A stretch of DNA of 64,000 nucleotides from NCBI GenBank assembly GCA_041653675.1, contig JBAZEY010000001.1:98-64097 (forward strand). Direction: 5' to 3'. Of this stretch, positions 3,001-61,644 are shown piece after piece; position 1 is the first letter of the stretch; every line of letters starts with the position of its first letter. The notes below the pieces were generated by a model that did not search any database, was not told the DNA's origin, and saw nothing but the letters and a program-made list of their open reading frames with translations. This stretch comes from Patescibacteria group bacterium. GTDB taxonomy: Bacteria; Patescibacteriota; Patescibacteriia; XYB2-FULL-38-15. The translations under genes and the position numbers were made by a program.

Positions 3001-3625
3001 TCACAAAGGTATCTTGACGGTCAGCTTGAACGCTTCTTCTCCTTCCGGCACTCAAACCGCTGGTGAAAATAAGGAAGTCTTAAGACTGAACCTTACTGCC
3101 ACTGGCGATGATGTCACCATCAGAGAACTGGAATTGAAGAACGGCGGTACCGCGACTATCACCGGCACAGGAAGTTTAACTGTGAAGAGTGATGATCTCG
3201 GCACAACTTACGCCACAGTTACTGGCGCCAACTGTAATACTTACAGCGCGTCTGGTAACTTCTGCCTTGAGACTGCTACGACATTGTCAATCGGCTCAAC
3301 CGCCGGAACAGGCGCTTGTACTGCTGTAGCCGTGGCTGATGGCGTTGGCGATAAGTGCTCTGGATACTGGACTGCGGACGACAACCTCCAGGTTGCGGCT
3401 GGCACCACGAAAGTCATCAGAATCTTTGGTGACACGACTGGCGCTCTCTCGACCAAGACCTATCAGATGACTGTTGGTCCAGATGCCACGAGTATGACCA
3501 CCGTTTATGGTGTGACATATCGTGATAGCTCTGGTACTGATGTCGGCGATAGGATTGCTTCGACGTCAAGCTCGTATCCAGCGACCAAGAATCTGCCTCT
3601 CTCTGGCGGAAGCTTGAGCTTCTAA
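1..3625 (+). CDS. Giant secreted/surface repeat protein, 5'-truncated by window edge. The first ~140 aa in the window match the ~125-aa domain that is C-terminal in the four paralogs; a ~1050-aa Thr/Gly/Ala-rich beta-repeat region follows.
   Basis: Open frame 2 runs from base 2 with no stop until 3625. Residues YYGADAKRYVFP...VRPGKLAQVVSMDSPWMVMDPKVYAV align with the C-terminal domains at 6366-6833, 9521-10102, 12601-13181 and 14770-15234. A terminator follows at 3652. Confidence 0.7.
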   Translation, partial: YYGADAKRYVFPYQASYASWYGSTFGAVTTMTDADLIAIPFGGNVTVRPGKLAQVVSMDSPWMVMDPKVYAVEKDNVLRWVKTADVAVAIFGATWESQIVAIPEALLTNYTIGAEINAAGDYTLATQQAVASINECKGLTGVSGTGGLSVALASDTPAAASVPKGAADVYFTKVNFTAGAADATITGLKVTRSGLGIDANLAAIKLFVDGVQRGTAQSLGSIHQATFTLSSNPIVVPAGTTKAVVLAADIAVATAFDQHVLGIALASDITTTATVSGTFPVNGSTMSLVNTSIGTAVISGGPLNPGTTGGDVGIDPAAVGYRFSQIRIAAGSVEPLVVQQIVAIRNGTAASTDVKNIELFNDTAGTSLGTVTGLDSTGRAVFSNLNLTIAKGAYVELSVKADMAGGSGRSISFDVHDGTAFAGMIKGGTFNFGITPTFTNTTAFCKTAATDYTCQTQTINQGYLTVSKSASAPATGKIPTGGTNVPLMAFDFTVAGEPINVTSTVVTYTTADGTGTAGTGIRTNVTNFTLVTAAGTTLAGPKDGDTTHTSVGAETLTITDGYTLPVGTTVVYAKANLSSLMTAGNTVVVTMAAGAITGKGANSAKIVHTTSTGATVPPASAITGNTMTVQGPVLAITTAASPVVGSMVVNAQDQIFAYLDLDASGGGENIRVSSIKVTDTCVAAAGPVACTLYTGLNNLELWGDPDNTDATVVNERLATSNSTAVLGATVTFTFQVPIVVSKAATSRLTLKADVTTVYDEASEGTADTHAFKVNAGGDVTAIGAVTGNTAAKTVSGAGQAQTLRASGTLKVEKAADMPSAVQLVSSSLANEVAKYKFTTQYEPVDVTTISLFCGDNTQAGTNCTLGNIAKLYVYANGVLVGNTAGYSLDATGLASVVLDSGTLVIPKDSYSTITIKADLPDKTQVTTSSGADIQIGIEGAGAAGTTHNEDNTWGDGVHVNNDYYIIANGQSSGAIIDMNTINSLGTTAVSQNFASNPFSAHKGILTVSLNASSPSGTQTAGENKEVLRLNLTATGDDVTIRELELKNGGTATITGTGSLTVKSDDLGTTYATVTGANCNTYSASGNFCLETATTLSIGSTAGTGACTAVAVADGVGDKCSGYWTADDNLQVAAGTTKVIRIFGDTTGALSTKTYQMTVGPDATSMTTVYGVTYRDSSGTDVGDRIASTSSSYPATKNLPLSGGSLSF

Positions 3626-3651
3626 TCTCTGAATTCGTTGATATAGAAAAA

Positions 3652-3687
3652 AGCAGGGCGCCCTCTCGGCGCCCTGCTTTGATTTTG
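3652..3687 (+). terminator. Rho-independent terminator (stem agcagggcgcc/ggcgccctgct followed by TTTGATTTT)
   Basis: Perfect 11-bp GC-rich stem with a 5-nt loop and a T-run, immediately after the stop at 3625. Confidence 0.7.
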
Positions 3688-3704
3688 TGGTAAAATAAAA
3701 TTGT

Positions 3705-3763
3705 CCCCGACTAAAGTCGGGACTCCGGCGAACGATTTGGACTCCTCACTTTAGTGAGGGTTG
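3705..3763. repeat. REP-like hairpin pair upstream of the RAYT gene (cccgac-TAAA-gtcggg + gactcc; cctcac-TTTA-gtgagg + gttg)
   Basis: Two 6-bp-stem, 4-nt-loop palindromes with a conserved GACTCC tail; the same units recur at 4311-4450. Confidence 0.7.
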
Positions 3764-3776
3764 AACACAGTAATAT

Positions 3777-4310
3777 ATGCCATACAGAGAATACCATCCG
3801 CCGCATCTATATTTTGATCAAACAATTTATTTTATAACTTGTCGCACAGTAAATAAAGAAAATTTTTTTGCAACCGATGCGCATAAGAATGTTTTATATT
3901 CCTGTCTAAGGACAGGACTCCAAAATTTTAATATTCCGATTTACGCTTTTGTTATTTTGGATAACCATTATCACTTGTTAATAAAAATACAAAAAGCCGG
4001 AGATTTGCCCCTATTTATTAAATATCTTAATGGTAAAAGTTCTTTTGAATTAAATAAATCGGAGAACGAACAGGGCCGGAAAATTTGGTACCAATATTTT
4101 GATCACACAATCCGCGACGAAGCTGATTTTTGGAAACATTTTAATTACATTCATCAAAATCCGGTAAAACACGGGTTCTGTAAAAATTTGAGGGAAGTTT
4201 TTGGTTATCCCTTTTCAAGCGCGAAAAGTTGGAGTAAAATAAAAGGAGAGGAATGGTTTGATTCTTGTTTTGAGTTGTATCCGATTGTTGATTTTACCGC
4301 GGGAGAATAA
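3777..4310 (+). CDS. REP-associated tyrosine transposase (RAYT; IS200/IS605 TnpA-like Y1 HUH enzyme)
   Basis: HUH motif HYHLL; C-terminal catalytic-Tyr region KIWYQYFDHTIRDEADFWKHFNYIHQNPVKHGF...YPFSS matches the TnpA_REP/Y1 transposase signature (IWQ..F.D..I....YI..NPV..G.V....W.YSS); flanked by REPs. Confidence 0.75.
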   Translation: MPYREYHPPHLYFDQTIYFITCRTVNKENFFATDAHKNVLYSCLRTGLQNFNIPIYAFVILDNHYHLLIKIQKAGDLPLFIKYLNGKSSFELNKSENEQGRKIWYQYFDHTIRDEADFWKHFNYIHQNPVKHGFCKNLREVFGYPFSSAKSWSKIKGEEWFDSCFELYPIVDFTAGE

Positions 4311-4450
4311 CCCCGACTAAAGTCGGAACTCCGCAGTCTCTCGGACTCCTCACTTTAGTGAGGGTTGGATCTACCCCGACTAAAGTCGGAACTCCAAATT
4401 TAATAATTTATTTAAAATTAAATTAAGTACCTGTCTAAAGACAGGACTCC
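4311..4450. repeat. Cluster of four REP-like hairpins (two cccgac/gtcgga units, one cctcac/gtgagg unit, one cctgtc/gacagg unit), each with a GACTCC/GAACTCC tail
   Basis: Hairpins at 4311-4332, 4343-4368, 4374-4395 and 4430-4450. All have a 6-bp stem and TAAA/TTTA loop; the last ends 9 nt before the ATG at 4460. Confidence 0.7.
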
Positions 4451-4459
4451 AAAAAACCT

Positions 4460-5128
4460 ATGACCAAAAAATTGAAAATTATTTTGATCGTCGTCGTTTT
4501 TATTTTAATCGCCGGCGGACTTCTCGTCTGGAAAACTTGGAATTGGCAAGGAAAGATGGGGGATTTAAGAAGTTATGTTACTTCCTTATTTTCTGGAGAA
4601 AAAGTAGAAGAATTACCGGCCGATGTTAAAGCGGCCTATGAAGCCTTGAAAAATGATCCGTCAAATACCAGCGCTTATATAAAAATTGCCGCTTGGAAAC
4701 GGGACCAAGGCCAATTGGCGGACGCGATTAAACTTTATGAATCAGCCTTAGAAGTGAAACCAGACGACACTTTGCTTTTAATGAATAGCGCCGAACTTTA
4801 TACGAGAAACGAGCAATATGCCGAGGCCGCGGGAGCGTATGTGAAAGTCATGGAAAGCAACCCGAAGTGGCTTGCCGCCTATCGCAGTTTAGCCGATCTT
4901 TATCGCTACCAAATGCCGGAAAGAAAAATTGAAATTCCGAGCATTTTAAAAAGGGGACTGGAAGCAAATTCGGAAAATGAAATTTATTTTGTCGCGCCGC
5001 TTGCCATTTATTACAAAGATTTCGGACCGGAAGACGAAGCGATTCGCTGGTACGAGCGGCTGCTTGAACTTGAACCCGGAAATCTCACGGCACAGAAAGA
5101 GTTGGAAGAATTAAAAAATAAACAATAA
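4460..5128 (+). CDS. TPR-repeat protein with N-terminal transmembrane anchor
   Basis: N-terminal hydrophobic helix ILIVVVFILIAGGLLVW followed by repeated 34-aa Ala/Tyr/Leu-rich TPR-like units (AYIKIAAWKRDQGQLADAIKLYESALEVKPDD...). Confidence 0.6.
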   Translation: MTKKLKIILIVVVFILIAGGLLVWKTWNWQGKMGDLRSYVTSLFSGEKVEELPADVKAAYEALKNDPSNTSAYIKIAAWKRDQGQLADAIKLYESALEVKPDDTLLLMNSAELYTRNEQYAEAAGAYVKVMESNPKWLAAYRSLADLYRYQMPERKIEIPSILKRGLEANSENEIYFVAPLAIYYKDFGPEDEAIRWYERLLELEPGNLTAQKELEELKNKQ

Positions 5129-5144
5129 ATAACGGTTAAAAATT

Positions 5145-6833
5145 ATGAAAAAAATCGTCTTCGCTCTGATTTTTCTTTTAACTATTCCTTGGATTCCGGT
5201 AGGAGCCGCGGAAACTATTACCGTCACGAATACTGGCGCGCCGGCCGTGATTTTCTATCCTTCAGAGTTTGATAAATTAGTTATGGATTTTACAATCGCG
5301 CGAACCGACGGAACAGCTGATGTTTTAAACGCCCTGACTTTGCAAAACGACGGCACGGCCTGGGGTTGGGATATTTCTAAAGTTGTTGTTTGGGCTGATG
5401 CCGGAGAGGCTGGCTTTCAGGGAATGGCGGTTGACGAAAAATTGGGCGAAGCAGTGCGCTACGAAACTGGCGGTTACTGGTATTTATCAGGATTGCAAAA
5501 AGCTGTGCCTGCATCCGGCCTTCGGATTTTTGTGAGTATTGAAACCGGATCAAAAGCCGTGATTACAGCCAACAGATCGGTCCAAATGAAAGTGCCTCTT
5601 CTTATTGACGGCGGAACGATTGGCCGGTTTGACCTCGGCGATTCGGGTTTATTTTTAGCCGGAGCCACTGGCACCGCGAGTGGAGTTGTAAATCCTTCAG
5701 CCCAGACCATCTGGGTTTCAAATTATGACACGAGCGCGCCCAAAACCGTGGTTACATCTCCCTCGGCCGGAACGATTATCACCACTTCAACTTTCAAAAT
5801 TACCGGCGTGGCGCGCGATCAAGGCGGTTCAACTTTGGCAACGCTTCAAATTCAAATTAACTCTGGGAGTACGGCCGGTTCTTGGGCAGATGTGACAAAT
5901 ACTGGAACAAATTATTCAACCTGGGAATATAATTGGACAAATATTGCCGACGGAACTTACACAATTAAAACGCAAGGCGCCGACTGGCTCGGCAATTCTG
6001 AAACAATCGGGCAGGGGACTACCGTAACAGTTGACCAAACCGCGACAACTTCGGCCTCCGCTTCTGCTTCCACGGTTTCCGCGACGCCCGCCACTCTTCC
6101 GGCCGACGGTTCAACCAGAACGTTTGTCAGCGTACTAGTTAAAAATTTAGTGGGCAGCGCACTTTCCGGAAAAACAGTTTCTTTAGTTTCCGATCGCTCA
6201 ACCGATAACATTATAGCTACCAAAGAAATAACTGGCGTGGACGGCCTGGCCACTTTTGAAGTAACGGGAACTGCGACCGGAGTTTCAACTTTGACCGCGA
6301 CAGTCGGCATCGTGACTTTAGACCAAAAACCGACTTTAACTTTTACCGCCGTTGCTTTTCACGCGGGAGATTTAATTAAAGGAACTGCGAGCACGGCCGT
6401 TTATTATTACGCAGATAACGGCAGAAGATATATTTTTCCGACCGCGGCGATTTATTCATCTTGGTTTACTGGTTTTTCTTCCATTAAAACAATCCCCGAC
6501 GCGGACCTCGCCGCCGTACCGACCTCCGGCAATGTTACTGTGCGGCCCGGAAAGTTGGTCCAGGTTGTCAGTATGGATACGCCCTGGCGCGTGATGGATC
6601 CGAAAGTTTACGCCGTGAGCCGCGGGGGAGTCTTGCGCTGGGTCAAAACCGCCGACGCGGCAAGCGCGATTTTTGGCACGGAATGGGAGAAGAGTATTGT
6701 CGCCGTGCCAGAGGTGTTTGTTACAAATTATAATTACGGAGCTGATATCAACATTGCCACGGATTACAATTTAGCGGCTGAGCAGGCGGTGGCAACAATT
6801 GACGAAGATAAAAGTGCGAGGGTGACGGATTAA
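5145..6833 (+). CDS. Secreted surface protein: signal peptide, invasin-type Ig domain (Big_1-like), shared C-terminal ~125-aa domain
   Basis: Signal peptide MKKIVFALIFLLTIPWIPVGAAE. The segment SVSATPATLPADGST...SGKTVSLVSDR...TGVDGLATFEVTGTATGVSTLTATV resembles Big_1. C-terminal YYYADNGRRYIFP...VRPGKLVQVVSMDTPWRVMDPKVYAV is shared with the paralogs. Confidence 0.7.
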   Translation: MKKIVFALIFLLTIPWIPVGAAETITVTNTGAPAVIFYPSEFDKLVMDFTIARTDGTADVLNALTLQNDGTAWGWDISKVVVWADAGEAGFQGMAVDEKLGEAVRYETGGYWYLSGLQKAVPASGLRIFVSIETGSKAVITANRSVQMKVPLLIDGGTIGRFDLGDSGLFLAGATGTASGVVNPSAQTIWVSNYDTSAPKTVVTSPSAGTIITTSTFKITGVARDQGGSTLATLQIQINSGSTAGSWADVTNTGTNYSTWEYNWTNIADGTYTIKTQGADWLGNSETIGQGTTVTVDQTATTSASASASTVSATPATLPADGSTRTFVSVLVKNLVGSALSGKTVSLVSDRSTDNIIATKEITGVDGLATFEVTGTATGVSTLTATVGIVTLDQKPTLTFTAVAFHAGDLIKGTASTAVYYYADNGRRYIFPTAAIYSSWFTGFSSIKTIPDADLAAVPTSGNVTVRPGKLVQVVSMDTPWRVMDPKVYAVSRGGVLRWVKTADAASAIFGTEWEKSIVAVPEVFVTNYNYGADINIATDYNLAAEQAVATIDEDKSARVTD

Positions 6834-7243
6834 GAGATTGTGGATAAGTTTCCTCTTGACCAACTCAGTTTTTCGTGATAAAATAAAAGAAGATTAAATT
6901 AATATGAAGTTAACCGTGCTTGTCGTTTCGCAAACGAGCGAATTAGTTTTAAGTTTCTCTAGGGGGAGAGACTTGTTTAATGCTTAATTTTTAGGCATTT
7001 TTTTGTTGTTTAACTAAGAATTTAACTAATAAATTTAATTAAATATAAACCTTACCCTGCGAGAAATTTATTCTGCGGGGAATAAGCGCTACGGCGCTTG
7101 AAATTCCGTCGCTCGTCCCAAATGTTCCGCCGAGGTGGACCACTTGCGGACTCGCTAGGAATTATAAAAAAGGCGAATTTCGGAATTAATTGCGAATAAT
7201 TTTATTCGCAGTTCTCAATTCTTGGTTCGTCGTTTCAAAAAAT

Positions 7244-10102
7244 ATGGCAGAAAGAATCAAAAAAGGCTTTTTCAAAGTATTGCCATTGTCGGTGGTAGTA
7301 TTTTTAGTGTTAGGCTTGGTGGTGTCCTTCACCATGCCAACTCCTCAAAATCTCGGAGTAGAGCCTGTGAAAGCAGCGGTTAACGGCGGCACTACGTCGG
7401 CTCTCTGGCTATTGGACACAAACGCAACTCCAAACGGAAAAATTGATAGAATCACTTTTAGTGTCCTTAACACGAGCGGAGATGCTTGGGCTTTGAATGT
7501 TGCCTTACCTTACGGGTTAAGCGTAACCCAGGCTGGCAATGCGATAACTATTTCGGCAGTTACTATCACGTCGATCGCCACCGCCAATCCAATTACTGTA
7601 CAAGTTGATTTAGATGAAAGTGACGCAGACTTACTCGTGAATACTGACGGTGTTACCACGGGAGCCATAGAATTAATCTATACTCCAGTCCTCTTCGCAA
7701 ACTGCGGCACAACAGCCAGTATTTGTGATACCGATGAAGAAATGAATGTCATTGCGACCGGCGATACCGGAGCAACTGATACTGAAGTTGATAAAGCCGC
7801 GCCGTATATGACTTCCGCAACTTATGGGGATTCCGACGCGGGTGGCAACGTTGACCGAGTTACTTTTGTCTTTTCCGAATCAACAACCTGGACCGCTATG
7901 ACCGCCGCGGATTGGGCATTCGGAGCTGGCGACATCGCTATAACAGGAGATTTTCTTATTGGTGACTGTACTGCCTCTCCATCTATAACCTATGTCTGTA
8001 CTGATGCGGCTAACGCTCATATTACCTCAACCGCCGATAGAACCGGTAAGCAGACTTTAGCGGGTATTGAACCAACCTTTACTTATACCAATAGCACTAA
8101 CGACATCAATGATGGCGCTGCTGCTAATAACACTGCCACTTTTGGGCCAAACTCCTTGGCTGATGGCGCCGCGCCATATTTCCTCTCTGCTATCTATTCA
8201 GATTCTACCGCTGACGGAAAAGTTGACCGCGTGGCTTTTGCCTTTTCTGAAGTGACGACCTTTAACGCGATTACTGCCGCGGACTGGGCATTTGGCGGAG
8301 GTGACATTGTCCTTAGTGGCGACTTTGCTCTCGCTGAATGCGTGGGTTCAGCCACCCTCACCACCGTTACCTGCACTGACGCTGGCACGGGAACAGTTGA
8401 CGCCACTGCTTCAAGAACCGGCAAACAAACTTTAGCAGGCATTGAACCAACTATTACTTATACTAATGGCACTAATGACATTAGAGATGCCTCCTCCAAT
8501 AATACTGCCACTTTTGGTCCAACATCCTTGGTTGATGGCGCAGCTCCAGTCTTTGTGACCACCTCTCCGGCTGACGGCGCGACAGGCGTGGCCCTGGACG
8601 CGAGTATGGTTATTACTTTCTCCGAGACGATGACCGAGGCCTCTGTTACAGGCGCGATTACCAGAGCTCCAGCATTTACTCTCGGCACGGCATCATGGAA
8701 TGCGGCGAGCATAATTCTTACTTACTCCGCTCACGACGCTTTTGCCGGCATGCAGAACTACATCATCACCTTAGCCGGAACAATCGCCTCAGCGGCCGCA
8801 ACTGACGGAAATCTTGGGACTGGTCCGGTAGCAAATCCTTTTGACTTCACTACGGTCGCGGCTTCTAGCGGCGGAGGAGGCGCTGCAACATTACCCGCGT
8901 CTATCACTGTCACAACTCCGAACGGCGGCGAAATTTTGACCGGAGGAGGAACTTACAGCATCACCTGGTCGGCTGTTAGTAATACCGACCCGGTTAGCAT
9001 TTATTATTCAACTGACAGCGGCATAAATTTCCTGAACACCATAGCTACGGACGAAACGAACGATGGTTCTTACACCTGGACTGTTCCGAACGTTGCCACG
9101 AGCGCGGCCAAGGTTAAAGTAGTGAGCGGCAGTTTGAATGATATTTCTGATTCCAACTTTACTATCACTTACTCTACTTCCGCGGTTTCCACTTCCACCT
9201 CCACAGTTGTTGCTTCCCCGACTTCAGTGACGGCCAACGGAACTTCCAAATCAACTGTCACAGTCACCGTCAAAGACTCGAGTTCTAATCTGCTTTCTGG
9301 TAAAGTCGTGACCCTTGCTTCTTCTCGCGGCACTTCCGATACGGTTACGACCGTGACCGGCACAACCGGCACTAACGGCGTCGCCACTTTTGAAGTCAAA
9401 TCAAGCACGGCTGGCACTTCAACTTACACGGCTACTGCCGCGGGCGTAGTTCTAACTCAAACCGCTTCAGTCTCCTTTGCCGCTCCCGGCACGCCTGGTG
9501 AAACTCCAGTTTCTCTTAGTGTCGGAGACTTGATTAAGAGCAGTCTCAGCTCTTCGGTCTATTACTATGGTTCCGACGGCAAACGCCATGTCTTCCCGAA
9601 TGAAAAGACTTACAAGAGTTGGTATGTGGATTTCACCGGCATCAAAACTATTTCCGCCTCTCAACTCCAGGGCATCACTCTTGGCAAAAATGTCACGGTC
9701 CGTCCCGGCACGGTGCTCGTCAAAATCCAGACTGATCCCAAGGTCTACGCCGTTGAACCAGGCGGGCTCCTTCGCTGGGTTCCGACCGAAGCTCGTGCCA
9801 CCACTCTTTACGGCTCCTCTTGGGCCTCAAAGATCATTGATGTTCCAGTCATCTTCTGGGTTGACTACACCTTTGGCACTGACATTACGACCGACAAACA
9901 TCCGACCGGCGCCTTGGTCCAATATACTGGTTCAACTGAAAAATATTACATCCAGGGCACGGAAAAGCGTTTGATCTCCACTGCCGGCTTCACCGCCAAC
10001 AAATTCCAGTTGTCCAATGTCCTTACTGTCCCAACTACCATTACCTACACAACTGGCACGGCTCTCTCAGCCGAGGAGACAGCGCTATCTAGAATTTACT
10101 AG
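7244..10102 (+). CDS. Giant surface protein paralog. Modules: signal anchor, two tandem ~131-aa DGAAP modules, Big_5-like, compact beta-sandwich (GPI/Kre9-like pattern ITWS...YSTDSG...DGSYTWTVP), Big_1-like, shared C-terminal domain.
   Basis: The ORF track starts at 7190, but the conserved N-terminus MAERIKKGFFKVLPLSVVVFLVLGL, identical in pattern to the 10281 gene, begins at ATG 7244. Domain motifs are read directly from the translation. No SD. Confidence 0.7.
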   Translation: MAERIKKGFFKVLPLSVVVFLVLGLVVSFTMPTPQNLGVEPVKAAVNGGTTSALWLLDTNATPNGKIDRITFSVLNTSGDAWALNVALPYGLSVTQAGNAITISAVTITSIATANPITVQVDLDESDADLLVNTDGVTTGAIELIYTPVLFANCGTTASICDTDEEMNVIATGDTGATDTEVDKAAPYMTSATYGDSDAGGNVDRVTFVFSESTTWTAMTAADWAFGAGDIAITGDFLIGDCTASPSITYVCTDAANAHITSTADRTGKQTLAGIEPTFTYTNSTNDINDGAAANNTATFGPNSLADGAAPYFLSAIYSDSTADGKVDRVAFAFSEVTTFNAITAADWAFGGGDIVLSGDFALAECVGSATLTTVTCTDAGTGTVDATASRTGKQTLAGIEPTITYTNGTNDIRDASSNNTATFGPTSLVDGAAPVFVTTSPADGATGVALDASMVITFSETMTEASVTGAITRAPAFTLGTASWNAASIILTYSAHDAFAGMQNYIITLAGTIASAAATDGNLGTGPVANPFDFTTVAASSGGGGAATLPASITVTTPNGGEILTGGGTYSITWSAVSNTDPVSIYYSTDSGINFLNTIATDETNDGSYTWTVPNVATSAAKVKVVSGSLNDISDSNFTITYSTSAVSTSTSTVVASPTSVTANGTSKSTVTVTVKDSSSNLLSGKVVTLASSRGTSDTVTTVTGTTGTNGVATFEVKSSTAGTSTYTATAAGVVLTQTASVSFAAPGTPGETPVSLSVGDLIKSSLSSSVYYYGSDGKRHVFPNEKTYKSWYVDFTGIKTISASQLQGITLGKNVTVRPGTVLVKIQTDPKVYAVEPGGLLRWVPTEARATTLYGSSWASKIIDVPVIFWVDYTFGTDITTDKHPTGALVQYTGSTEKYYIQGTEKRLISTAGFTANKFQLSNVLTVPTTITYTTGTALSAEETALSRIY
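7778..8566 (+). repeat. Intragenic tandem duplication: two ~393-bp (131-aa) DGAAP modules
   Basis: DKAAPYMTSATYGDSDAGGNVDRVTFVFSE...RTGKQTLAGIEPTFTYTN and DGAAPYFLSAIYSDSTADGKVDRVAFAFSE...RTGKQTLAGIEPTITYTN are near-identical at the aa level. Confidence 0.7.
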
Positions 10103-10122
10103 AACTTAGATAGATTAGAAAA

Positions 10123-51154: not shown

Positions 51155-52264
51155 ATGCACAATTCGTTTTCGCTCGGAAGAATAAAAAACATAGAAATAA
51201 AAATACACTTTTCCTGGTTTTTAATTTTATTCTTGATTGTTTGGTCGCTGGCTGATTTTTATTTCCCCGCAAACTATCCTGGCTGGACAGATACCGCCTA
51301 TTGGCTCTCCGGCGGAGTGGCAGCATTTTTACTTTTTGTATCGGTATTGCTACACGAACTTTCCCATTCGCTAGTGGGCAAAAGAAAAAATATTATTGTT
51401 AAGAGCATAACTTTGTTTGTTTTTGGCGGCGTGGCAGAAATGGTGAGCGAACCTAAAAAACCAGCCGACGAATTTGATATGGCGATCGCCGGACCGGTTG
51501 CGAGCGTTGTTTTAGCCGGTATTTTTTGGGGCATCGCGAGTTTTGAAATCGGCATCGCTGGCGCAGCCATTGCTAATTACCTTTTTTTGATCAATGGTAT
51601 TTTAGCAGTTTTTAATTTAGTACCCGCGTTCCCCTTGGATGGAGGGAGAGTTTTTCGTTCAGCGCTTTGGGCAAAATATAAAGACATCGAACGAGCCACT
51701 CGTCGGGCGGTAGGCGTAAGCCGTTTCATCGCTTTTCTCTTTACTCTTTGGGGGATAAAAATGCTTCTTGAAAATAATTTTTTGAGCGGGATTTGGATAA
51801 TTTTGATTAGTTGGTTTTTACTCCAGGCGGCCGGATCAAGTTTAAGGCAGCAGAGGATGGAAGAGGTGCTTTCGCGTTTCAATATTGGGCATATCATGGA
51901 AAAAGATTTTAAGAGTGTTACGTCCGATACATTGCTTAAAGATTTAGCTAAAGCATTTCTGGATTATAAACAAGGAGGTTTTCCCGTTGAGGAAAACGAT
52001 CACTTAATTGGTATTGTTACGATTGAAGATTTGAGGCGAACGCCTCGGACAAAGTGGTCGAAAATTAAAGTGGGGGAAATAATGACTGGAGCGGAAAAAC
52101 TTTTAACGCTTCGGCCGGACGACACGGCCTACGATGCCTTCTTGAAAATGGCTAGTAACGAGTTTGGCCGTTTGCCGGTTGTGGAAAACAATAAAGTGGT
52201 TGGGCTCGTGACCAGAAATTCTATTATTTTACTTTTGGCCGTGAAGTGTGATAAATGCGTTTAA
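51155..52264 (+). CDS. M50-family site-2-protease-like zinc metalloprotease with C-terminal CBS domain pair
   Basis: HELSHSLV (HExxH) in a TM helix, a second ligand motif in PLDGGRV, then two CBS repeats (HLIGIVTIEDL; VVGLVTRNSI). Confidence 0.75.
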   Translation: MHNSFSLGRIKNIEIKIHFSWFLILFLIVWSLADFYFPANYPGWTDTAYWLSGGVAAFLLFVSVLLHELSHSLVGKRKNIIVKSITLFVFGGVAEMVSEPKKPADEFDMAIAGPVASVVLAGIFWGIASFEIGIAGAAIANYLFLINGILAVFNLVPAFPLDGGRVFRSALWAKYKDIERATRRAVGVSRFIAFLFTLWGIKMLLENNFLSGIWIILISWFLLQAAGSSLRQQRMEEVLSRFNIGHIMEKDFKSVTSDTLLKDLAKAFLDYKQGGFPVEENDHLIGIVTIEDLRRTPRTKWSKIKVGEIMTGAEKLLTLRPDDTAYDAFLKMASNEFGRLPVVENNKVVGLVTRNSIILLLAVKCDKCV

Positions 52265-52278
52265 AATTTAAAATAAAT

Positions 52279-52851
52279 ATGACTAATCAAAAATTATTTC
52301 AACAGTTAAAAAAAGATTTTGAATTTTACGGAGAAGAAAGAAGAAAGTTAATCGGTGTTTCTAATGAAGCACTGATGAGGGCGAAGCAGGCGATTTTTGC
52401 TTTTCACAGAGATGACTTAAAAGGTGGCAACGCGCTGCTCGCCGAAGTGGAAAAGATTTTTCAAGATTTGGAAAAGAAATTTAAACAAGAGCCGGAGTTG
52501 CGCTACGAAGGAGCGTATCATGCGGCGCTTGAAGAATACGTGGAAGCAAAATTTTTTGGAAGATTTTTGGAAGATGGGAAAATAGATTTTATAAAAGGGA
52601 TGGAAATTGACGCCGATAGTTACCTGGGTGGTCTCTGCGATTTTACCGGGGAACTTGTTCGAAAGGCAGTTCTCGCGGCTACGGATAAAAAATTTAAAAA
52701 AGTTGAAGAGTTTGTGGCCGGCGTCCGCGATGTTATCGGAGAATTAATTAAAATGAATTTGACCGGGTATTTGCGGACAAAGTATGATCAGGCCAAACAG
52801 AATTTACGGCGGGCGGAGGAAGTTTTGTATGATGTAAAAATGAGGGAGTAA
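52279..52851 (+). CDS. Hypothetical all-alpha protein (about 190 aa)
   Basis: ORF overlaps the end of the M50 gene. The internal ATG at 52279 (MTNQKL) is preferred over the track start 52255. No confident family assignment. Confidence 0.35.
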   Translation: MTNQKLFQQLKKDFEFYGEERRKLIGVSNEALMRAKQAIFAFHRDDLKGGNALLAEVEKIFQDLEKKFKQEPELRYEGAYHAALEEYVEAKFFGRFLEDGKIDFIKGMEIDADSYLGGLCDFTGELVRKAVLAATDKKFKKVEEFVAGVRDVIGELIKMNLTGYLRTKYDQAKQNLRRAEEVLYDVKMRE

Positions 52852-53429: not shown

Positions 53430-53930
53430 TTTGGAATAAATTACGCCGAAATATTTAAAAGTTTTCCTCCCGAGGCGGCAACAGCCTTAATTGCCATGAT
53501 CCCGATCGCTGAACTGCGCGTGGCAATGCCGGTTGCGCTTTTAGTTTATAAAATGTCTTTTTGGTCGGCGATGCTTTGGTCGGTACTCGGAAATATGCTG
53601 CCGATTTTTTTGATTGTTTTTCTTCTGCGCCCGGCCGCGGATTTTTTAATGAAGCATTGGGGGCTGGCGAAAAGATTTTTTGATTGGTGGTTTACTCGCG
53701 TGCGCAAAAAATTTGAGGGAGGAATTTTAAAATATGGAATAAATTTGGCGCTTGTAGTTTTTGTTGCGATTCCTCTGCCTTTGACCGGCGCCTGGTCCGG
53801 AGCCGTGGCTGCATATCTATTTGGCATTCCGCCGCGGCGCGCCTTGATTTTAATCACGATTGGCGTTATAATAGCGGGAATTATTGTTGGGTTAATAACT
53901 GGCGGTGGCATTTATTTATTTAAAACATGA
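53427..53930 (+). CDS. Small polytopic membrane protein, COG2426 / putative small multidrug-export-like family
   Basis: IPIAELRVAMPVALLVYKMSFWSAMLWSVLGNMLPIFLIVFLL pattern of the Sm_multidrug_ex-like family; 4 TM. Confidence 0.45.
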   Translation: MFGINYAEIFKSFPPEAATALIAMIPIAELRVAMPVALLVYKMSFWSAMLWSVLGNMLPIFLIVFLLRPAADFLMKHWGLAKRFFDWWFTRVRKKFEGGILKYGINLALVVFVAIPLPLTGAWSGAVAAYLFGIPPRRALILITIGVIIAGIIVGLITGGGIYLFKT

Positions 53931-55267
53931 TTAATTTTCGCGATAAAAAAATAACCGTAATGGGGCTTGGCCTTTTGGGTCGGGGAGTTGGTGTTGTAAA
54001 ATTTTTAGTTGGAAAAGGCGCGAAGGTGACCGTGACGGATTTAAAGAGCGCAAAAGATTTAGCGCCGTCAGTTCATGAAATAAAAAAGTTTTTAAAGAAT
54101 AGAAAAGGTGCGTATCCGGTAAAATTTATTTTAGGCAAACATCGGTTAGAAGATTTTCGTGGTGTTGACATGGTTTTTAAAGCCGCGGGCGTGCCGCTGG
54201 ATTCAGTGTATATAGCAGAGGCGAAAAAAAATGGCGTGCCGGTTTTTATGGATGATGCGTTATTCGGCCGCGAGGCAGAGTGCAAAATAATTGGCATTAC
54301 CGGAACACGCGGGAAAACAACGACTTCAAGTTTAATTTATGAAATTGCTAGGGCAACTGATAAAAAAACATATTTTGGCGGAAACGTCCGGGGAATGGCC
54401 ACACTTCCGTTTTTGGAAAAAGTTAAAAAAAATGACCTTGTGGTTTTGGAACTTTCAAGCTGGCAACTTCAGGGCTGGCGAGATTTAAAAATCAGTCCGC
54501 AAATTTCCGTTGTGACAAATATCTATCCCGACCATCAGAATTATTATAAAAACAGCATGGCAAAATATATTCACGACAAAGAAGCGATTTTTGCCAATCA
54601 GAAAAAAAATGATTTTTTGGTTTTGAATAAAAATTGCGCGTGGTGTCAAAAAATGGTAAGGCGAGCTCCGGGAAAAATAATTTGGTTTTCCGCAAACGAT
54701 GTTCCTCGTGGATGGAATTTAAAAATTTTAGGTGAGCATAATTTAGAAAATATTTCTGCGGCCATGGCTGTCGGAAAAATTTTAGGATTACCCATGGCGC
54801 GGATTAAAAAAGCCGTGGAAAATTTTCGCGGTGTGCCTGGCCGATTGGAATTTGTGCGCGAAGTTCATGGTGTGAAATATTATAATGATACGACATCAAC
54901 TATGCCCGAAGCGACGATTGCGGCGCTTCGCGCTCTCCGTGGAAAAAATATTATTTTGATCGCCGGTGGCGCGGACAAGAATTTGAATTTTAAAAATTTG
55001 GCGCCAGCGATTAAAAAATATACAAAAGCCGTTGTGCTTTTGTCCGGCACCGCGACACAAAAAATGCAGCAACAATTACGCGTTGTAAATTACAAGTTAC
55101 CGGTCACTCTTACGAAGAGTATGTCCGAAGCCGTTAAGACGGCGCGGAAATTCGCCACGCGCGGCGATGTAATTTTACTTTCTCCGGCCGCCGCGAGTTT
55201 CGGAATGTTTAAAAATGAGTTTGACAGGGGGGATCAATTTTTGAAGGAAGTGGAAAAATTAGCTTAA
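53927..55267 (+). CDS. murD: UDP-N-acetylmuramoylalanine--D-glutamate ligase
   Basis: N-terminal Rossmann VMGLGLLGRGVGVVKFL, Mur ligase P-loop IGITGTRGKTTTSS, and MurD-like C-domain. Confidence 0.75.
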   Translation: MINFRDKKITVMGLGLLGRGVGVVKFLVGKGAKVTVTDLKSAKDLAPSVHEIKKFLKNRKGAYPVKFILGKHRLEDFRGVDMVFKAAGVPLDSVYIAEAKKNGVPVFMDDALFGREAECKIIGITGTRGKTTTSSLIYEIARATDKKTYFGGNVRGMATLPFLEKVKKNDLVVLELSSWQLQGWRDLKISPQISVVTNIYPDHQNYYKNSMAKYIHDKEAIFANQKKNDFLVLNKNCAWCQKMVRRAPGKIIWFSANDVPRGWNLKILGEHNLENISAAMAVGKILGLPMARIKKAVENFRGVPGRLEFVREVHGVKYYNDTTSTMPEATIAALRALRGKNIILIAGGADKNLNFKNLAPAIKKYTKAVVLLSGTATQKMQQQLRVVNYKLPVTLTKSMSEAVKTARKFATRGDVILLSPAAASFGMFKNEFDRGDQFLKEVEKLA

Positions 55268-55293: not shown

Positions 55294-57258
55294 ATGCCAG
55301 AACGAATGCCACAATTTGAGTGCCCAAAATGTGGAGGGGGTCATGAACCCGGGATCTGTCCGCAAGAAATTACCGAGTCAAAAGAAGAAGGAGCTTTGGG
55401 GCCGAAAGAACAGGCGAAGCAAAGAAGAGTTCAAAAGAAACTAGAAGCCAGCTTGTCAGCGGATAAGATTTTCGAAGTACGAGACATCATTAGTTTGGCG
55501 GAAAGGAAAAACATTCCTTTGGATTTTTCTAAACCAGAAATTGCCGCTGCTCTCCAGAAAGGACTAGAAGTTTGTTTATTAGAGCACAATGGTGCCTTTT
55601 TCGATCAGATTGTTAGTATGGCAGAAAGAAAAAACATTCCTTTGGATTTTTCTAAACCAGAAATTGTCGCTGCTCTCCAGAAAGTAGTAGAAGGCGAATT
55701 GGTTAGGGGCGCAGTTTATATTGCCGTACTGAATATCGGCTTGGCGGAAAGAAAAAACATTCCTTTGGATTTTTCTAAACCAGCAATAGTTTCTGCCCTC
55801 CAAAAATTTTTGGATTCAAGCAACGATATCGGCAGACTTAAAGAAGTAGTAGACTTGGCGGAAAATAAAAACATTCCTTTGAAAGTTACGAAAGCGATAA
55901 AAAGACTGCTGCAAATAGGTCGCGCGGATGATACTGAAACAAAAAAATCTTTTGGTTTGCCGGAAATAGAGAAGAGAGACACCTTGGAGGTCCAAATTGA
56001 TTCAGGGATTGATAGAGAATTTTTAGAGGCTTATTTTGGCGGGGCAGATAAAGAAAAGATTGCGCAGCATGTTGAGGGGTTGATTCCTAAAGAAATTAAC
56101 AACTTGGTCAGACAAGTCTTTATTAAGAAAAAGAAGGCAGATGAAAGGGTTTGGTCGGACGGCAGAAGGATTAGCGCGTCAGGAAGTTATGATATACACC
56201 AGGGGACAATCTCGCTTTATGTGGAAAACGGTGGTCATCTTGAAACAGTGTTATGGCACGAGTTTGGCCATGCCGTAATGTTTGGGGAAGGAATTGAAAA
56301 AGAGGCGGGGGAATTACACAGAAAATTTTTTGATGCAGTAAGGCAACAATCAACAAATTTTTTATCAACTTATGCGATGGACACTTACCGGGAAGAGGGA
56401 GCTGCAATAGGCTTGCATGAGGATTTTGCTGAGACGTTTAATTTCTTTTTTACAGATCCGGAATTATTAAAAGAAAAAAATCCTGAGCGTTTTCAGGCGA
56501 TGAGCCAAATAATTAACGAATTGTTCCCCAGCCTTGACGTCGAGGGTGCCCGTATGGCAACAAAACAAAGGGAGCGGGAGCGTCAGGCGAGAGAAAAACA
56601 ATCACCAAAAATTTGTCGTACTTTTTTTGAAGAAGTTAGCAATAACGCAGCCCTCGCCGAAGGCGTTAAATTATTTCCAACTTTTGATTTTAGATTTTTA
56701 GATTTTTTGCAATCGCGAGGCAGTCCGAAATCAATTGTGCAGAGGCGGACAGAAGCGGGGATAGGGATAACTATAAGCGCTCATTACGGAGAGGATGGTG
56801 AATTGAGAGAAGAAATAATAGAAGAAGGAGGGCGTCGGACAGAAGTATTTTTTGAGCCAAAATATGACAAAAGAAGAAACACGCTTCGCTCTTATAAAAC
56901 AACAGATTCATGGACGGGCGAAGTGTTATTAGTGCAGTTATCATATAGGGATAATGAGTCTCTTCCATCCGAGATAGAGATAATTAAGCCGGAAACCGGC
57001 AAACGCGTTGGAGTTGTCACTTACCAACAATCAAAAGGGAAATTAATAGAGAGGTTTGTATTAGAGGGTGGCGGTGAGAGCAAAAGCGTTTACAAATTTG
57101 ATAAAAGTAAAAAAATCAGTTCTGTGCGCGGTATGATCAAGAATCAAGTTATTTTGGAACGCACTTACGAGTACGACCGAAAAGGTAGGCTTTCGTCTAA
57201 AAATTTATTAAATCATTTGGGGCGCTCTTTGAAGAAAATTAATTATAAATATGACTGA
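55294..57258 (+). CDS. Multidomain hypothetical protein: N-terminal zinc ribbon (CPKCGGGHEPGIC), four 41-aa tandem repeats, HExxH zinc-metallopeptidase-like motif (WHEFGHAV), C-terminal YD-repeat-like segment (YEYDRKGRL)
   Basis: Motifs read directly from the translation; there are no TM helices or signal peptide. Confidence 0.5.
   Translation: MPERMPQFECPKCGGGHEPGICPQEITESKEEGALGPKEQAKQRRVQKKLEASLSADKIFEVRDIISLAERKNIPLDFSKPEIAAALQKGLEVCLLEHNGAFFDQIVSMAERKNIPLDFSKPEIVAALQKVVEGELVRGAVYIAVLNIGLAERKNIPLDFSKPAIVSALQKFLDSSNDIGRLKEVVDLAENKNIPLKVTKAIKRLLQIGRADDTETKKSFGLPEIEKRDTLEVQIDSGIDREFLEAYFGGADKEKIAQHVEGLIPKEINNLVRQVFIKKKKADERVWSDGRRISASGSYDIHQGTISLYVENGGHLETVLWHEFGHAVMFGEGIEKEAGELHRKFFDAVRQQSTNFLSTYAMDTYREEGAAIGLHEDFAETFNFFFTDPELLKEKNPERFQAMSQIINELFPSLDVEGARMATKQRERERQAREKQSPKICRTFFEEVSNNAALAEGVKLFPTFDFRFLDFLQSRGSPKSIVQRRTEAGIGITISAHYGEDGELREEIIEEGGRRTEVFFEPKYDKRRNTLRSYKTTDSWTGEVLLVQLSYRDNESLPSEIEIIKPETGKRVGVVTYQQSKGKLIERFVLEGGGESKSVYKFDKSKKISSVRGMIKNQVILERTYEYDRKGRLSSKNLLNHLGRSLKKINYKYD
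55498..55930 (+). repeat. Four tandem 123-bp repeats (41 aa: AERKNIPLDFSKPEIAAALQK...)
   Basis: A core of about 60 nt, ggcggaaag(g)aaaaacattcctttggatttttctaaaccagaaattg.cgctgctctccagaaag, recurs at 55498, 55621 and 55744 with a degenerate fourth copy at 55858. Confidence 0.7.
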
Positions 57259-57517
57259 AAAATATCGTATCATTTATCAAAATCAGGATGTTGGATTTTT
57301 AACTATTGAAAATGCCGAGAAGATAGTAGCCGATGCCCCTGAAAGCGTGCGTGACATGGTTCTTGCCGTTTGGGATAAAATAATCAATATTGGCATTAGA
57401 CAAAGCGGGGATATAATTTATGAGTCGCCCAAGCCCGTGCCTGCGGTACATCGGTCTTCAATATTGTGGCTTGAGCTAAAGAAATATGGGATTAGGTTAA
57501 AGTCGGTAGAAAAATAA
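57251..57517 (+). CDS. Small hypothetical protein (88 aa)
   Basis: ORF overlapping the upstream stop by 8 nt; host-like composition. Confidence 0.3.
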   Translation: MTEKYRIIYQNQDVGFLTIENAEKIVADAPESVRDMVLAVWDKIINIGIRQSGDIIYESPKPVPAVHRSSILWLELKKYGIRLKSVEK

Positions 57518-57518
57518 A

Positions 57519-58835
57519 ATGAATCCAAAAGAAATAATCAAAAAATTTATTCCGGGATTTTTACTCCGGTGGTATCATAAAACTCTCGCGTTGGCGGCAA
57601 ATATTTTTTATGGTTTTCCGTCAAATAAATTAATAGTGATTGGCGTGACGGGAACAAATGGAAAATCAACGACCGTGCATCTGATTTCCAAAATGTTTGA
57701 AGGCGCGGGATACAAAGTCGGCGCGACTTCCACGGTTGGTTTTAAAATTGCGACTGAGGAATGTTTGAATAAGAAAAAGATGACTATGCTCGGCCGGTTT
57801 GCTTTGCAAAAATTATTGCGGAAAATGGTCGCGGCCGGTTGCCGGTACGCCGTGATTGAAACTTCGTCGCAGGGGGTGGAACAGTTTCGCCACTTGGGCG
57901 TAAATTATGACGTGGCGGTTTTTACCAATTTAACGCCGGAACACATTGAAGCGCACGGCGGCTTTGAAAATTACAAAAAAGCCAAAGGAAAGTTTTTCGC
58001 GCATCTTACGGCCAAGCCGCGTAAAGTGATCGACGGGAAAGCAGTGCCGAAAGTTAGCGTAGTAAATCTTGACGACGAGCACGCAAAATATTTCGCGGAA
58101 TTTCCGGCGGATGAAAAAATTGGTTACAGCATAAAAAATCAGGTGGATGTCCGGGCGGAAAATGTGGTGTTAAAAAATAGTGGCGCGGATTTTACGGTTC
58201 GCGGTATACCGTTTCATTTAAATTTGTTGGGGGAATTCAATGTTTATAATGCGCTAGCGGCCGTGGCGGTCGGGTTGTCGCAAGGATTGCCACTGGAAAA
58301 TATTTCAAAATCGTTGGAAAAAATTGGCGGAGTTCCGGGCAGAATGGAATTTATTAATGAAGGACAAAATTTTAAAGTTTTAGTTGATTATGCGCCAGAG
58401 CCGGCATCAATGAAAAAACTTTATGAAACAGTTCGCGGCTCAGGGTTTATAACTTCCGGCGGAAAAATTATTCATGTGTTAGGTTCAGCCGGTGGCGGGC
58501 GCGATAAATCTCGTCGGCCGATTTTGGGAAGAATCGCCGGTGAGAATGCCGATTATGTTATAATTACGAACGAAGATCCTTATGATGAAAATCCGGAAGA
58601 AATTATAAATCAGGTGGCAGCTGGGGCGGCGGGAAAAGAAGAAAATGTAAATTTATTCAAAATTTTAGATCGTGGCGAGGCAATCGCCAAAGCCTTGAAT
58701 CTCGCTCGCGAAAATGATTTAGTGATCATCACCGGCAAGGGATCAGAGCAGGCGATTTGCGTAGCCAACAATAAAAAAATTCCCTGGGATGACCGGGAAA
58801 AGATTAGGGAAATTTTGAAAAATAGGGGGCATTAA
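57519..58835 (+). CDS. Mur ligase family enzyme, most consistent with UDP-MurNAc-tripeptide synthetase (MurE-like)
   Basis: P-loop VIGVTGTNGKSTT, central domain TNLTPEHIEAHGGFENYKKAKGKFF, C-terminal Mur ligase domain. The MurE versus MurC/MurF assignment is tentative. Confidence 0.6.
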   Translation: MNPKEIIKKFIPGFLLRWYHKTLALAANIFYGFPSNKLIVIGVTGTNGKSTTVHLISKMFEGAGYKVGATSTVGFKIATEECLNKKKMTMLGRFALQKLLRKMVAAGCRYAVIETSSQGVEQFRHLGVNYDVAVFTNLTPEHIEAHGGFENYKKAKGKFFAHLTAKPRKVIDGKAVPKVSVVNLDDEHAKYFAEFPADEKIGYSIKNQVDVRAENVVLKNSGADFTVRGIPFHLNLLGEFNVYNALAAVAVGLSQGLPLENISKSLEKIGGVPGRMEFINEGQNFKVLVDYAPEPASMKKLYETVRGSGFITSGGKIIHVLGSAGGGRDKSRRPILGRIAGENADYVIITNEDPYDENPEEIINQVAAGAAGKEENVNLFKILDRGEAIAKALNLARENDLVIITGKGSEQAICVANNKKIPWDDREKIREILKNRGH

Positions 58836-61418: not shown

Positions 61419-61459
61419 AAAAAGAAAAACGGCCTTTCTGAAAAAGTCCGTTTTTCCTA

Positions 61460-61532
61460 AGCCGACGGTGGGATTTGCACCCACGACCTCTGCTTTACGA
61501 AAGCATTGCTCTGCTGGCTGAGCTACGTCGGC
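61460..61532 (-). tRNA. tRNA-Thr (anticodon CGU)
   Basis: Minus-strand GCCGACGUAGCUCAGCCAGCAGAGCAAUGCUUUCGUAAAGCAGAGGUCGUGGGUGCAAAUCCCACCGUCGGCU forms a cloverleaf; anticodon loop UUCGUAA. Confidence 0.85.
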
Positions 61533-61573
61533 AAAGCGGGATATTTTGCCTCAACTTGCCCCCACACCAAATC

Positions 61574-61644
61574 AGCGAGAAAGGGGAATCGAACCCCCGT
61601 CTCGTGCTTGGGAAGCACGCATTCTACCATTGAACTACTCTCGC
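61574..61644 (-). tRNA. tRNA-Gly (anticodon CCC)
   Basis: Minus-strand GCGAGAGUAGUUCAAUGGUAGAACGCGUGCUUCCCAAGCACGAGACGGGGGUUCGAUUCCCCUUUCUCGCU; anticodon loop UUCCCAA; flanked by a perfect 15-bp inverted repeat. Confidence 0.85.

Follow-up and report, generated by a model that had tools for sequence, protein, structure and literature searches.

A predicted lethal-factor-like protease with a short YD-repeat sheet and a linked small partner gene in Patescibacteria

We analysed one gene and its downstream neighbour in a stretch of 64,000 nucleotides (nt) from a Patescibacteria group bacterium (contig JBAZEY010000001.1); this whole stretch is called the window below. The gene runs from an ATG at 55294 to a stop that ends at 57258 and encodes a protein of 654 amino acids (aa), the window protein. 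The arrangement is new: a lethal-factor-like protease stands ahead of a short YD-repeat sheet, with a linked small partner gene and an exchangeable N-terminal module. Each of these domain types is known singly, but their combination, their order and the linkage to the partner are not described in the libraries and literature searched. The data suggest that the large gene and its partner are a new cassette, made up of a protease and its inhibitor or of a toxin and its immunity protein.

The zincin protease and the YD sheet

The features of the gene that concern its enzyme and C-terminal part are as follows.

55294..57258, plus strand: whole gene, from the list of open reading frames (ORFs); 654 aa comprising knuckle, repeats, zincin, helical linker and YD sheet
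55987..56538, plus strand: zincin metallopeptidase domain, lethal-factor-like, aa 232-415 (AlphaFold2 [AF2] model, Foldseek, zincin-only profile)
56257..56271, plus strand: HEFGH catalytic motif, aa 322-326 (H322, E323, H326), found in 29 of 29 relatives
56371..56373, plus strand: Y360, invariant in 29 of 29 relatives; aligns with the SY of lethal factor
56419..56433, plus strand: EDFAE motif, aa 376-380, with E376 as the likely third zinc ligand; aligns with the ExFAxxF of lethal factor
56539..56733, plus strand: helical linker, aa 416-480 (helices H192-249 of the confident AF2 model)
56734..57255, plus strand: YD-repeat beta-hairpin sheet of 14 strands, about seven hairpins, aa 481-654 (AF2 model, Foldseek, profile)

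Relatives of the window protein are few. Word-indexed protein searches returned 5, 1 and 2 matches, and the family emerged only by an exhaustive search, in which a two-sequence profile (aa 239-654 of the window protein and the matching part of the relative P0002) was run against 1.84 billion representative proteins. This gave 59 matches, about 30 of them with the protease core. Some 14 of the 59 are proteins of 560-676 aa that have the zincin and then the C-terminal part, in the same order as the window protein; about 16 are shorter and carry the zincin at their C-terminus, and in a further 11 the match is confined to the C-terminal part. A scan of a genome collection returned the P0002 contig only, and a scan of viral contigs found no relatives. 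The nearest named relatives of the 654-aa protein come from metagenome-assembled genomes of Patescibacteria. Proteins with the zincin core, whether or not a YD part is attached, form a rare uncharacterised family found mainly on Patescibacteria-like contigs. Among defence models in PADLOC the window proteins matched at noise level only, and in PHROGs they gave a weak "peptidase" match.

The original prediction had noted a HExxH motif in the middle of the protein. Indeed, it is present as HEFGH and is invariant in an alignment of 29 relatives, from which all our conservation counts are taken. Within a GLxEDFAE segment further downstream, E376 is conserved in 26 of the 29, with aspartate in two more; D377 is found in 28 and E380 in 23 (aspartate in a further three). 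R399 is likewise conserved, in 28 of the 29 aligned sequences. An AF2 model of aa 225-654, built with the family alignment, has a mean predicted local distance difference test (pLDDT) score of 91.4 and a predicted template modelling (pTM) score of 0.85, and it contains the zincin sheet, the active-site helix and the glutamate helix. HEFGH lies on model helix 92-106 and E376 on model helix 146-163. When the model was compared with the Protein Data Bank (PDB) by Foldseek, it matched anthrax lethal factor (4pkr, 1pwp) at an E-value of about 4e-4 and a probability of 1.0, and IrrE weakly. With a candidate third ligand in place and a metallopeptidase fold matched at that probability, the claim of a metallopeptidase has held up.

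Profile searches led to the same enzyme. A profile of the zincin alone found lethal factor (1j7n) as its top match among solved structures, at E 5e-6, and aligned with residues 651-767, which include the HEFGHAV and SY of the catalytic domain; it also aligned with residues 210-248, the ExFAxxF...P..F of lethal factor's degenerate first domain. The Pro-Pro endopeptidases (PPEP-1/Zmp1) came next, at E 0.01. In lethal factor the residues with these roles are H686, H690, E735 and Y728, and Y360 is the counterpart of Y728. Searched as a single sequence, the window protein matched nothing in the PDB and had no match to Pfam ATLF (PF07737) at E up to 10, a family that matched weakly in three of the 29 relatives (best E 2.2e-5). 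Matches to Peptidase_M90 stayed below the gathering cut-off, at 15.3-16.3 bits versus 26.2 (E 0.008-0.016, with the window protein at 0.016), and weak Pfam similarity to M90/MtfA and to M78/IrrE was seen in four of the 29 members each.

From model and alignment, we conclude that the domain is a catalytically complete zinc endopeptidase of the lethal-factor-like (M34-like) branch of zincins, with predicted metal coordination. It has in common with lethal factor and the Pro-Pro endopeptidases the HEFGHAV active-site helix, the tyrosine downstream of it and an ExFAExF glutamate helix. Unlike lethal factor, it has nine extra residues between this tyrosine and the glutamate, lacks a protective antigen (PA)-binding or signal sequence, is fused to a YD sheet and is paired with a small gene. 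Two observations point towards use as a toxin. Remote relatives of the zincin occur at the C-terminus of a MuF protein and within proteins of phage tails, and lethal-factor-like peptidases have been listed among the toxin domains of polymorphic toxins (PMC3482391).

The C-terminus had been compared with YD repeats on the strength of one motif, RTYEYDRKGRLSS, which is present at aa 623-635, and this assignment is borne out by profile and by fold. Of the 11 proteins whose match to the family profile is confined to its C-terminal part, ten carry Pfam RHS_repeat. Against solved structures, the family profile matched the YD shell of teneurin-3 at E 2.7e-7 and the Rhs protein 8h8a at E 2e-4, and by Foldseek the sheet resembles the shells of Tc toxins, type VI secretion system (T6SS) Rhs proteins and teneurins, as well as Bacteroides DUF4595 proteins. 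Since RHS_repeat proteins, profile matches and shell folds all agree, we consider the predicted C-terminal sheet to be a genuine YD-repeat domain. The Pfam model itself, RHS_repeat (PF05593), had no match in the window protein or in its C-terminal part; P0002 reached 15.2 bits against a cut-off of 22, and weak matches occur in eight of the 29 relatives. MORN repeats were also considered, as a viral structure library returned mostly MORN look-alikes of the hairpin sheet, and were rejected because sequence profiles favour YD.

Like Rhs proteins, the BC components of Tc toxins and teneurins, the window protein has YD beta-hairpin repeats by both profile and fold, and a small gene directly downstream. 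Unlike them, it has a YD part of only about seven hairpins (174 aa), too few for a closed shell. This part follows the enzyme instead of preceding it, and the chain stops within the repeats, without a conserved Rhs core or a cleavage motif after them. The window protein also has no PAAR, VgrG or other trafficking domain, and its N-terminus is the part that varies: relatives agree in the zincin-YD core and differ in their N-terminal 230-290 aa. The best overall fold matches are the Bacteroides DUF4595 "porin-like" proteins (PDB 4ghb, 3tzg), which have short, open YD-like sheets of similar size; unlike the window protein, they stand alone, lack a protease domain and have no known function. The window protein is not a canonical Rhs or polymorphic toxin. 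The polymorphic-toxin-like label of the original prediction fails on the short YD part placed after the enzyme, on the N-terminal position of the variable part and on the trafficking domain, which was not found.

A small gene downstream of the zincin

The partner gene is the next feature on the same strand.

57251..57517, plus strand: 88-aa partner gene; overlaps the stop of the large gene by 8 nt, with homologous small ORFs after relatives

The original prediction had proposed this ORF as a candidate immunity gene. At the end of P0002 there is an overlapping ORF of 96 aa, whose product is 30% identical to the 88-aa one. Other relatives followed by a small ORF, of 86-103 aa, are P0007, P0009 and its adjacent paralogue, P0012 and P0017, which has the zincin only. 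All of these ORFs match a profile made from the small proteins; the one on contig L012, which was outside the profile input, does so at E 2.5e-27. A homologous small ORF was found after seven of the eight relatives for which we had DNA (including L002, L005, L006 twice, L008 and L012), and P0008, which lies outside this DNA-checked set, has an overlapping ORF of 103 aa. The zincin core, then, nearly always has a gene of 86-103 aa directly downstream, which usually overlaps its stop. On one 291-kb contig (L006, JGI Ga0233428_1000013) two cassettes stand in tandem at 4001-8277, the first encoding 635 and 86 aa and the second 615 and 94 aa. They are followed there by a 654-aa gene of unknown type.

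Since a small ORF follows the zincin-only P0017 and none was found beside the proteins that share the repeats with the window protein but have other C-terminal parts (P0003-P0005, L014 and L015, described below), the partner gene travels with the zincin, and not with the YD part or the repeats. Searches of Pfam, NCBIfam and PDB sequences gave no match for the partner, and PADLOC and PHROGs returned only noise. It is predicted to be a small alpha/beta protein without catalytic motifs. The ORF therefore remains a candidate for immunity or inhibition: it belongs to a conserved, usually overlapping partner family, and it matches no known immunity family.

The N-terminal knuckle and its repeats

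The N-terminal part of the protein carries the features listed here.

55321..55362, plus strand: CCHC zinc knuckle CPKCGGGHEPGICP, aa 10-23 (motif coordinates; conserved N-terminally in L014 and L015; zinc binding predicted)
55495..55617, plus strand: helical repeat unit 1, aa 68-108, 41 aa (Tandem Repeats Finder [TRF], unit alignment, 31-nt core)
55618..55740, plus strand: helical repeat unit 2, aa 109-149, 41 aa; units 1 and 2 make up the 246 bp missing in L001
55741..55854, plus strand: helical repeat unit 3, aa 150-187, 38 aa (unit alignment)
55855..55929, plus strand: degenerate repeat unit 4, aa 188-212, in which AENKNIPL alone is retained (unit alignment)

A zinc ribbon is built of two CxxC-type knuckles that flank a beta-hairpin. 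The N-terminus had been read as such a ribbon, which is wrong: the motif CPKCGGGHEPGIC at aa 10-22 places four ligands in 13 residues with the spacing C-x2-C-x3-H-x4-C, so that there is one CxxC, a histidine and a cysteine, and the second CxxC is absent. This is a CCHC knuckle. It is not a chance match, because the same motif, CPxCGGxHxPxxCP, opens two further repeat proteins that a metagenome scan with the repeat alignment recovered. One of them, L014 (1053 aa, 3827-6988), begins ECPICGGIHPPDACP, and the other, L015 (441 aa, 385-1710), begins RCPICGGFHPPGACP. In both, the knuckle is followed by the Lys/Glu-rich helix and the 37/41-aa repeats that the window protein also has. The C-terminal part of L014 consists of a coiled coil, a Cys-rich domain and a GNAT (acetyltransferase) domain, and L015 is almost wholly made of near-identical repeats. 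L015 also scored 53.6 bits, summed over its repeats, against the plant family PF09713 (A_thal_3526), for which the cut-off is 27.8.

Three more proteins, P0003, P0004 and P0005, have the repeats in common with the window protein and other domains attached to them. Because these five proteins combine the repeats, and some of them the knuckle, with other C-termini, the knuckle and repeat region is a module of its own that is fused to differing C-terminal parts. Most relatives in the zincin family bear a different, helical N-terminal domain.

Four nearly identical 41-aa repeats had been described. The repeats exist, but only three are good copies (of 41, 41 and 38 aa), and the fourth is degenerate. 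TRF reports a 123-bp period at 55495-55806, with 2.5 copies and 78% matches. In units 1-3 the first 66 nt (22 aa) are 88-94% identical and the other 57 nt 21-44%, so that the earlier figure of about 60-nt identical cores was roughly right. An exact core of 31 nt occurs three times in the gene, versus zero expected by chance; it was not found in JGI metagenome contigs. Several antisense ORFs of 52-88 aa lie over the repeat region on the minus strand (55431-55995), with similar ones in L014 and L015. They look like by-products of the repeated sequence and not like genes.

A very recent expansion had been read from these repeats. That reading applies at most to the 66-nt cores, which are near-identical; the other half of each unit is saturated, and the cores look homogenised. 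Third-codon-position identity of the cores within a gene is 0.82-0.88 in three of four genes (0.68 in L010), and when the window gene is compared with repeat genes from other genomes it is 0.49-0.59. This higher identity within than between genes points to homogenisation of the cores inside each gene, rather than to plain fresh duplication.

The gene is also present in an independent assembly, on contig L001 (ENA ERZ27247358), which over 14 kb differs from the window by 16 mismatches (99.8-99.97% identity). L001 lacks exactly 246 bp, the length of two units, and the junction falls inside the shared core. Repeat number does differ, then, between two near-identical strains, and the difference is either genuine copy-number variation of close strains or an assembly collapse in L001.

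In a full-length AF2 model (six sequences, overall pLDDT 51.6) the repeats form two-helix hairpins with pLDDT 64-83. This low-confidence model gave marginal fold matches to designer PPR proteins (E about 1e-3), which we take as a hint only. The array would thus resemble PPR/TPR-type arrays in its 38-41-aa repeats, predicted as two-helix hairpins, and in these weak fold matches; unlike them, it has no match to any Pfam repeat family.

Genomic setting and possible function

The large gene is preceded by murD (53927-55267), and the partner is followed by a second Mur ligase (57519-58835). Other neighbours, whose names come from the table of Pfam domains for L001, a near-identical contig, encode an M50-CBS peptidase, translin, a NUDIX protein, DivIC, a SurA-like protein and FtsEX. 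The translin-family protein (PF01997 in the same table) is encoded at 52255-52851. The G+C content (GC) of the gene and its GC at third codon positions (GC3) equal those of adjacent genes, so there is no sign of recent import, and horizontal acquisition was rejected. A role in the cell wall, suggested by the flanking Mur ligases, was given little weight: among the contexts examined only two have such ligases nearby, and an export signal is absent from the protein.

Some other observations concern the surroundings. At 92-17674 the window holds a run of large proteins with Ig-like domains (Big_1, Big_5, Invasin_D3) and a subtilase with FG-GAP repeats; these are probably surface or adhesion proteins. 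Contig L001 has about 186 bp more (11756-11910) than the window at 61441-61473, beside tRNA genes at 61460-61644; this is possibly an additional tRNA copy. On contig L002 (1-6201), two giant genes with T4SS_pilin (PF18895) domains are encoded on the strand opposite to P0002, at a distance of about 1.5 kb; this was seen in this one context only.

Our preferred reading, to which we give a probability of about 0.45, is that the large protein is a protease held in check by its partner, and possibly an exported effector; its function is inferred from the features described above. The small protein would bind the protease and keep it inactive in the producer cell, as an inhibitor or an immunity protein. 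The YD sheet and the linker could form a docking surface, or one that partly encloses a bound protein. The knuckle-repeat array might pick the target or the location, and recombination at the identical 31-nt cores of the repeats could change its length. The likeliest use would be that of an effector, exported by a route free of Sec signals, that acts on the proteins of another cell. We favour this reading because exported proteins are where YD repeats and lethal-factor-like zincins typically occur, because the cassettes can be duplicated in tandem and because N-terminal modules are exchanged and differ in length. To our knowledge, YD repeats and zincins of this kind occur almost only in exported proteins.

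Several results weigh against this. The statement that the protein has no signal peptide or transmembrane (TM) segment holds by a Kyte-Doolittle scan, in which the highest 19-residue value is 1.25; a search of Pfam and NCBIfam found no N-terminal secretion or trafficking domain in it either. The same is true of the family: by hydropathy, a crude test made without a dedicated signal predictor, 32 of 32 relatives lack a signal peptide or TM segment, with values below 1.75 and charged N-termini, and none has a recognisable trafficking domain. The architecture is reversed relative to that of classical polymorphic toxins, as the N-terminus is variable and the C-terminus constant. Next to P0020, a relative with the zincin alone, no partner gene is found, and the partner falls outside every known immunity or inhibitor family searched. 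Secretion genes are not consistently adjacent, and the gene sits with native base composition between murD and another Mur ligase. The difference in repeat number, finally, could stem from an assembly collapse in L001.

Much of this would suit an intracellular regulatory protease, a serious rival that we hold to be somewhat less likely. The large protein would then be a cytoplasmic zincin, with the small protein as its regulator or substrate, in the manner of MtfA and Mlc or of ImmA/IrrE and their repressors, and the N-terminal module would tether it to a cellular partner. An export signal is found in no relative, the genes lie amid housekeeping genes and have native base composition, and the two proteins have diverged to a similar degree (32% identity over the BLAST-aligned region for the large one, 30% for the small). 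MtfA (Peptidase_M90) and ImmA/IrrE (M78) are also small cytoplasmic zincins with HExxH, a downstream glutamate and a partner protein, and the weak Pfam similarities reported above are to these families. Unlike them, however, the window protein has a YD part, its M90 score is far under the cut-off, and its partner is unrelated to theirs. Nor does the partner carry a helix-turn-helix (HTH) or other regulator signature. The association of YD repeats and lethal-factor-like zincins with export speaks against an intracellular role (see also PMC3482391), and tandem paralogous cassettes with swapped N-terminal modules fit conflict systems better.

The small protein may instead be a chaperone or adaptor that stabilises the large protein or loads it for export, which we regard as improbable. 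The tight coupling of the usually overlapping genes, the strict co-occurrence with the zincin core and the small alpha/beta fold without catalytic motifs would all be expected of such a protein. In effector systems, though, adaptors are usually encoded upstream and immunity genes downstream. The partner gene is downstream, and it follows the zincin rather than the variable N-terminal module, which is the likelier export handle. We also considered an artefact: the gene may have been misassembled into a chimera, or may be decaying, with motifs devoid of function. Repeats may confuse short-read assemblers, and the copy numbers in L001 and the window do disagree; yet two independent assemblies agree on all domain junctions and on an intact reading frame, the catalytic residues are fully conserved and the model is highly confident. 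This artefact is largely refuted, and we put its chance close to nil.

A more specific version of the effector-and-inhibitor reading can be drawn, as a speculation that we think has little chance of being right. The pair would be a cassette that Patescibacteria direct at their host bacteria: a lethal-factor-like protease with a half-shell of YD repeats, an immunity protein and Sec-free export, aimed by an exchangeable knuckle-repeat array. Recombination would alter the length of this array, which might recognise a nucleic acid or a repetitive surface in the manner of PPR or TAL proteins.

Patescibacteria live attached to other microbes, and few of the proteins that they use on their hosts are known. 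Should the pair prove to be an effector and its inhibitor, it would offer a tractable way to study the action of these bacteria on their hosts, and it would provide an example of YD repeats beyond the closed-shell design of Rhs proteins. The knuckle-repeat module, for its part, constitutes a separate, uncharacterised family of repeats whose copy number shows signs of rapid change.

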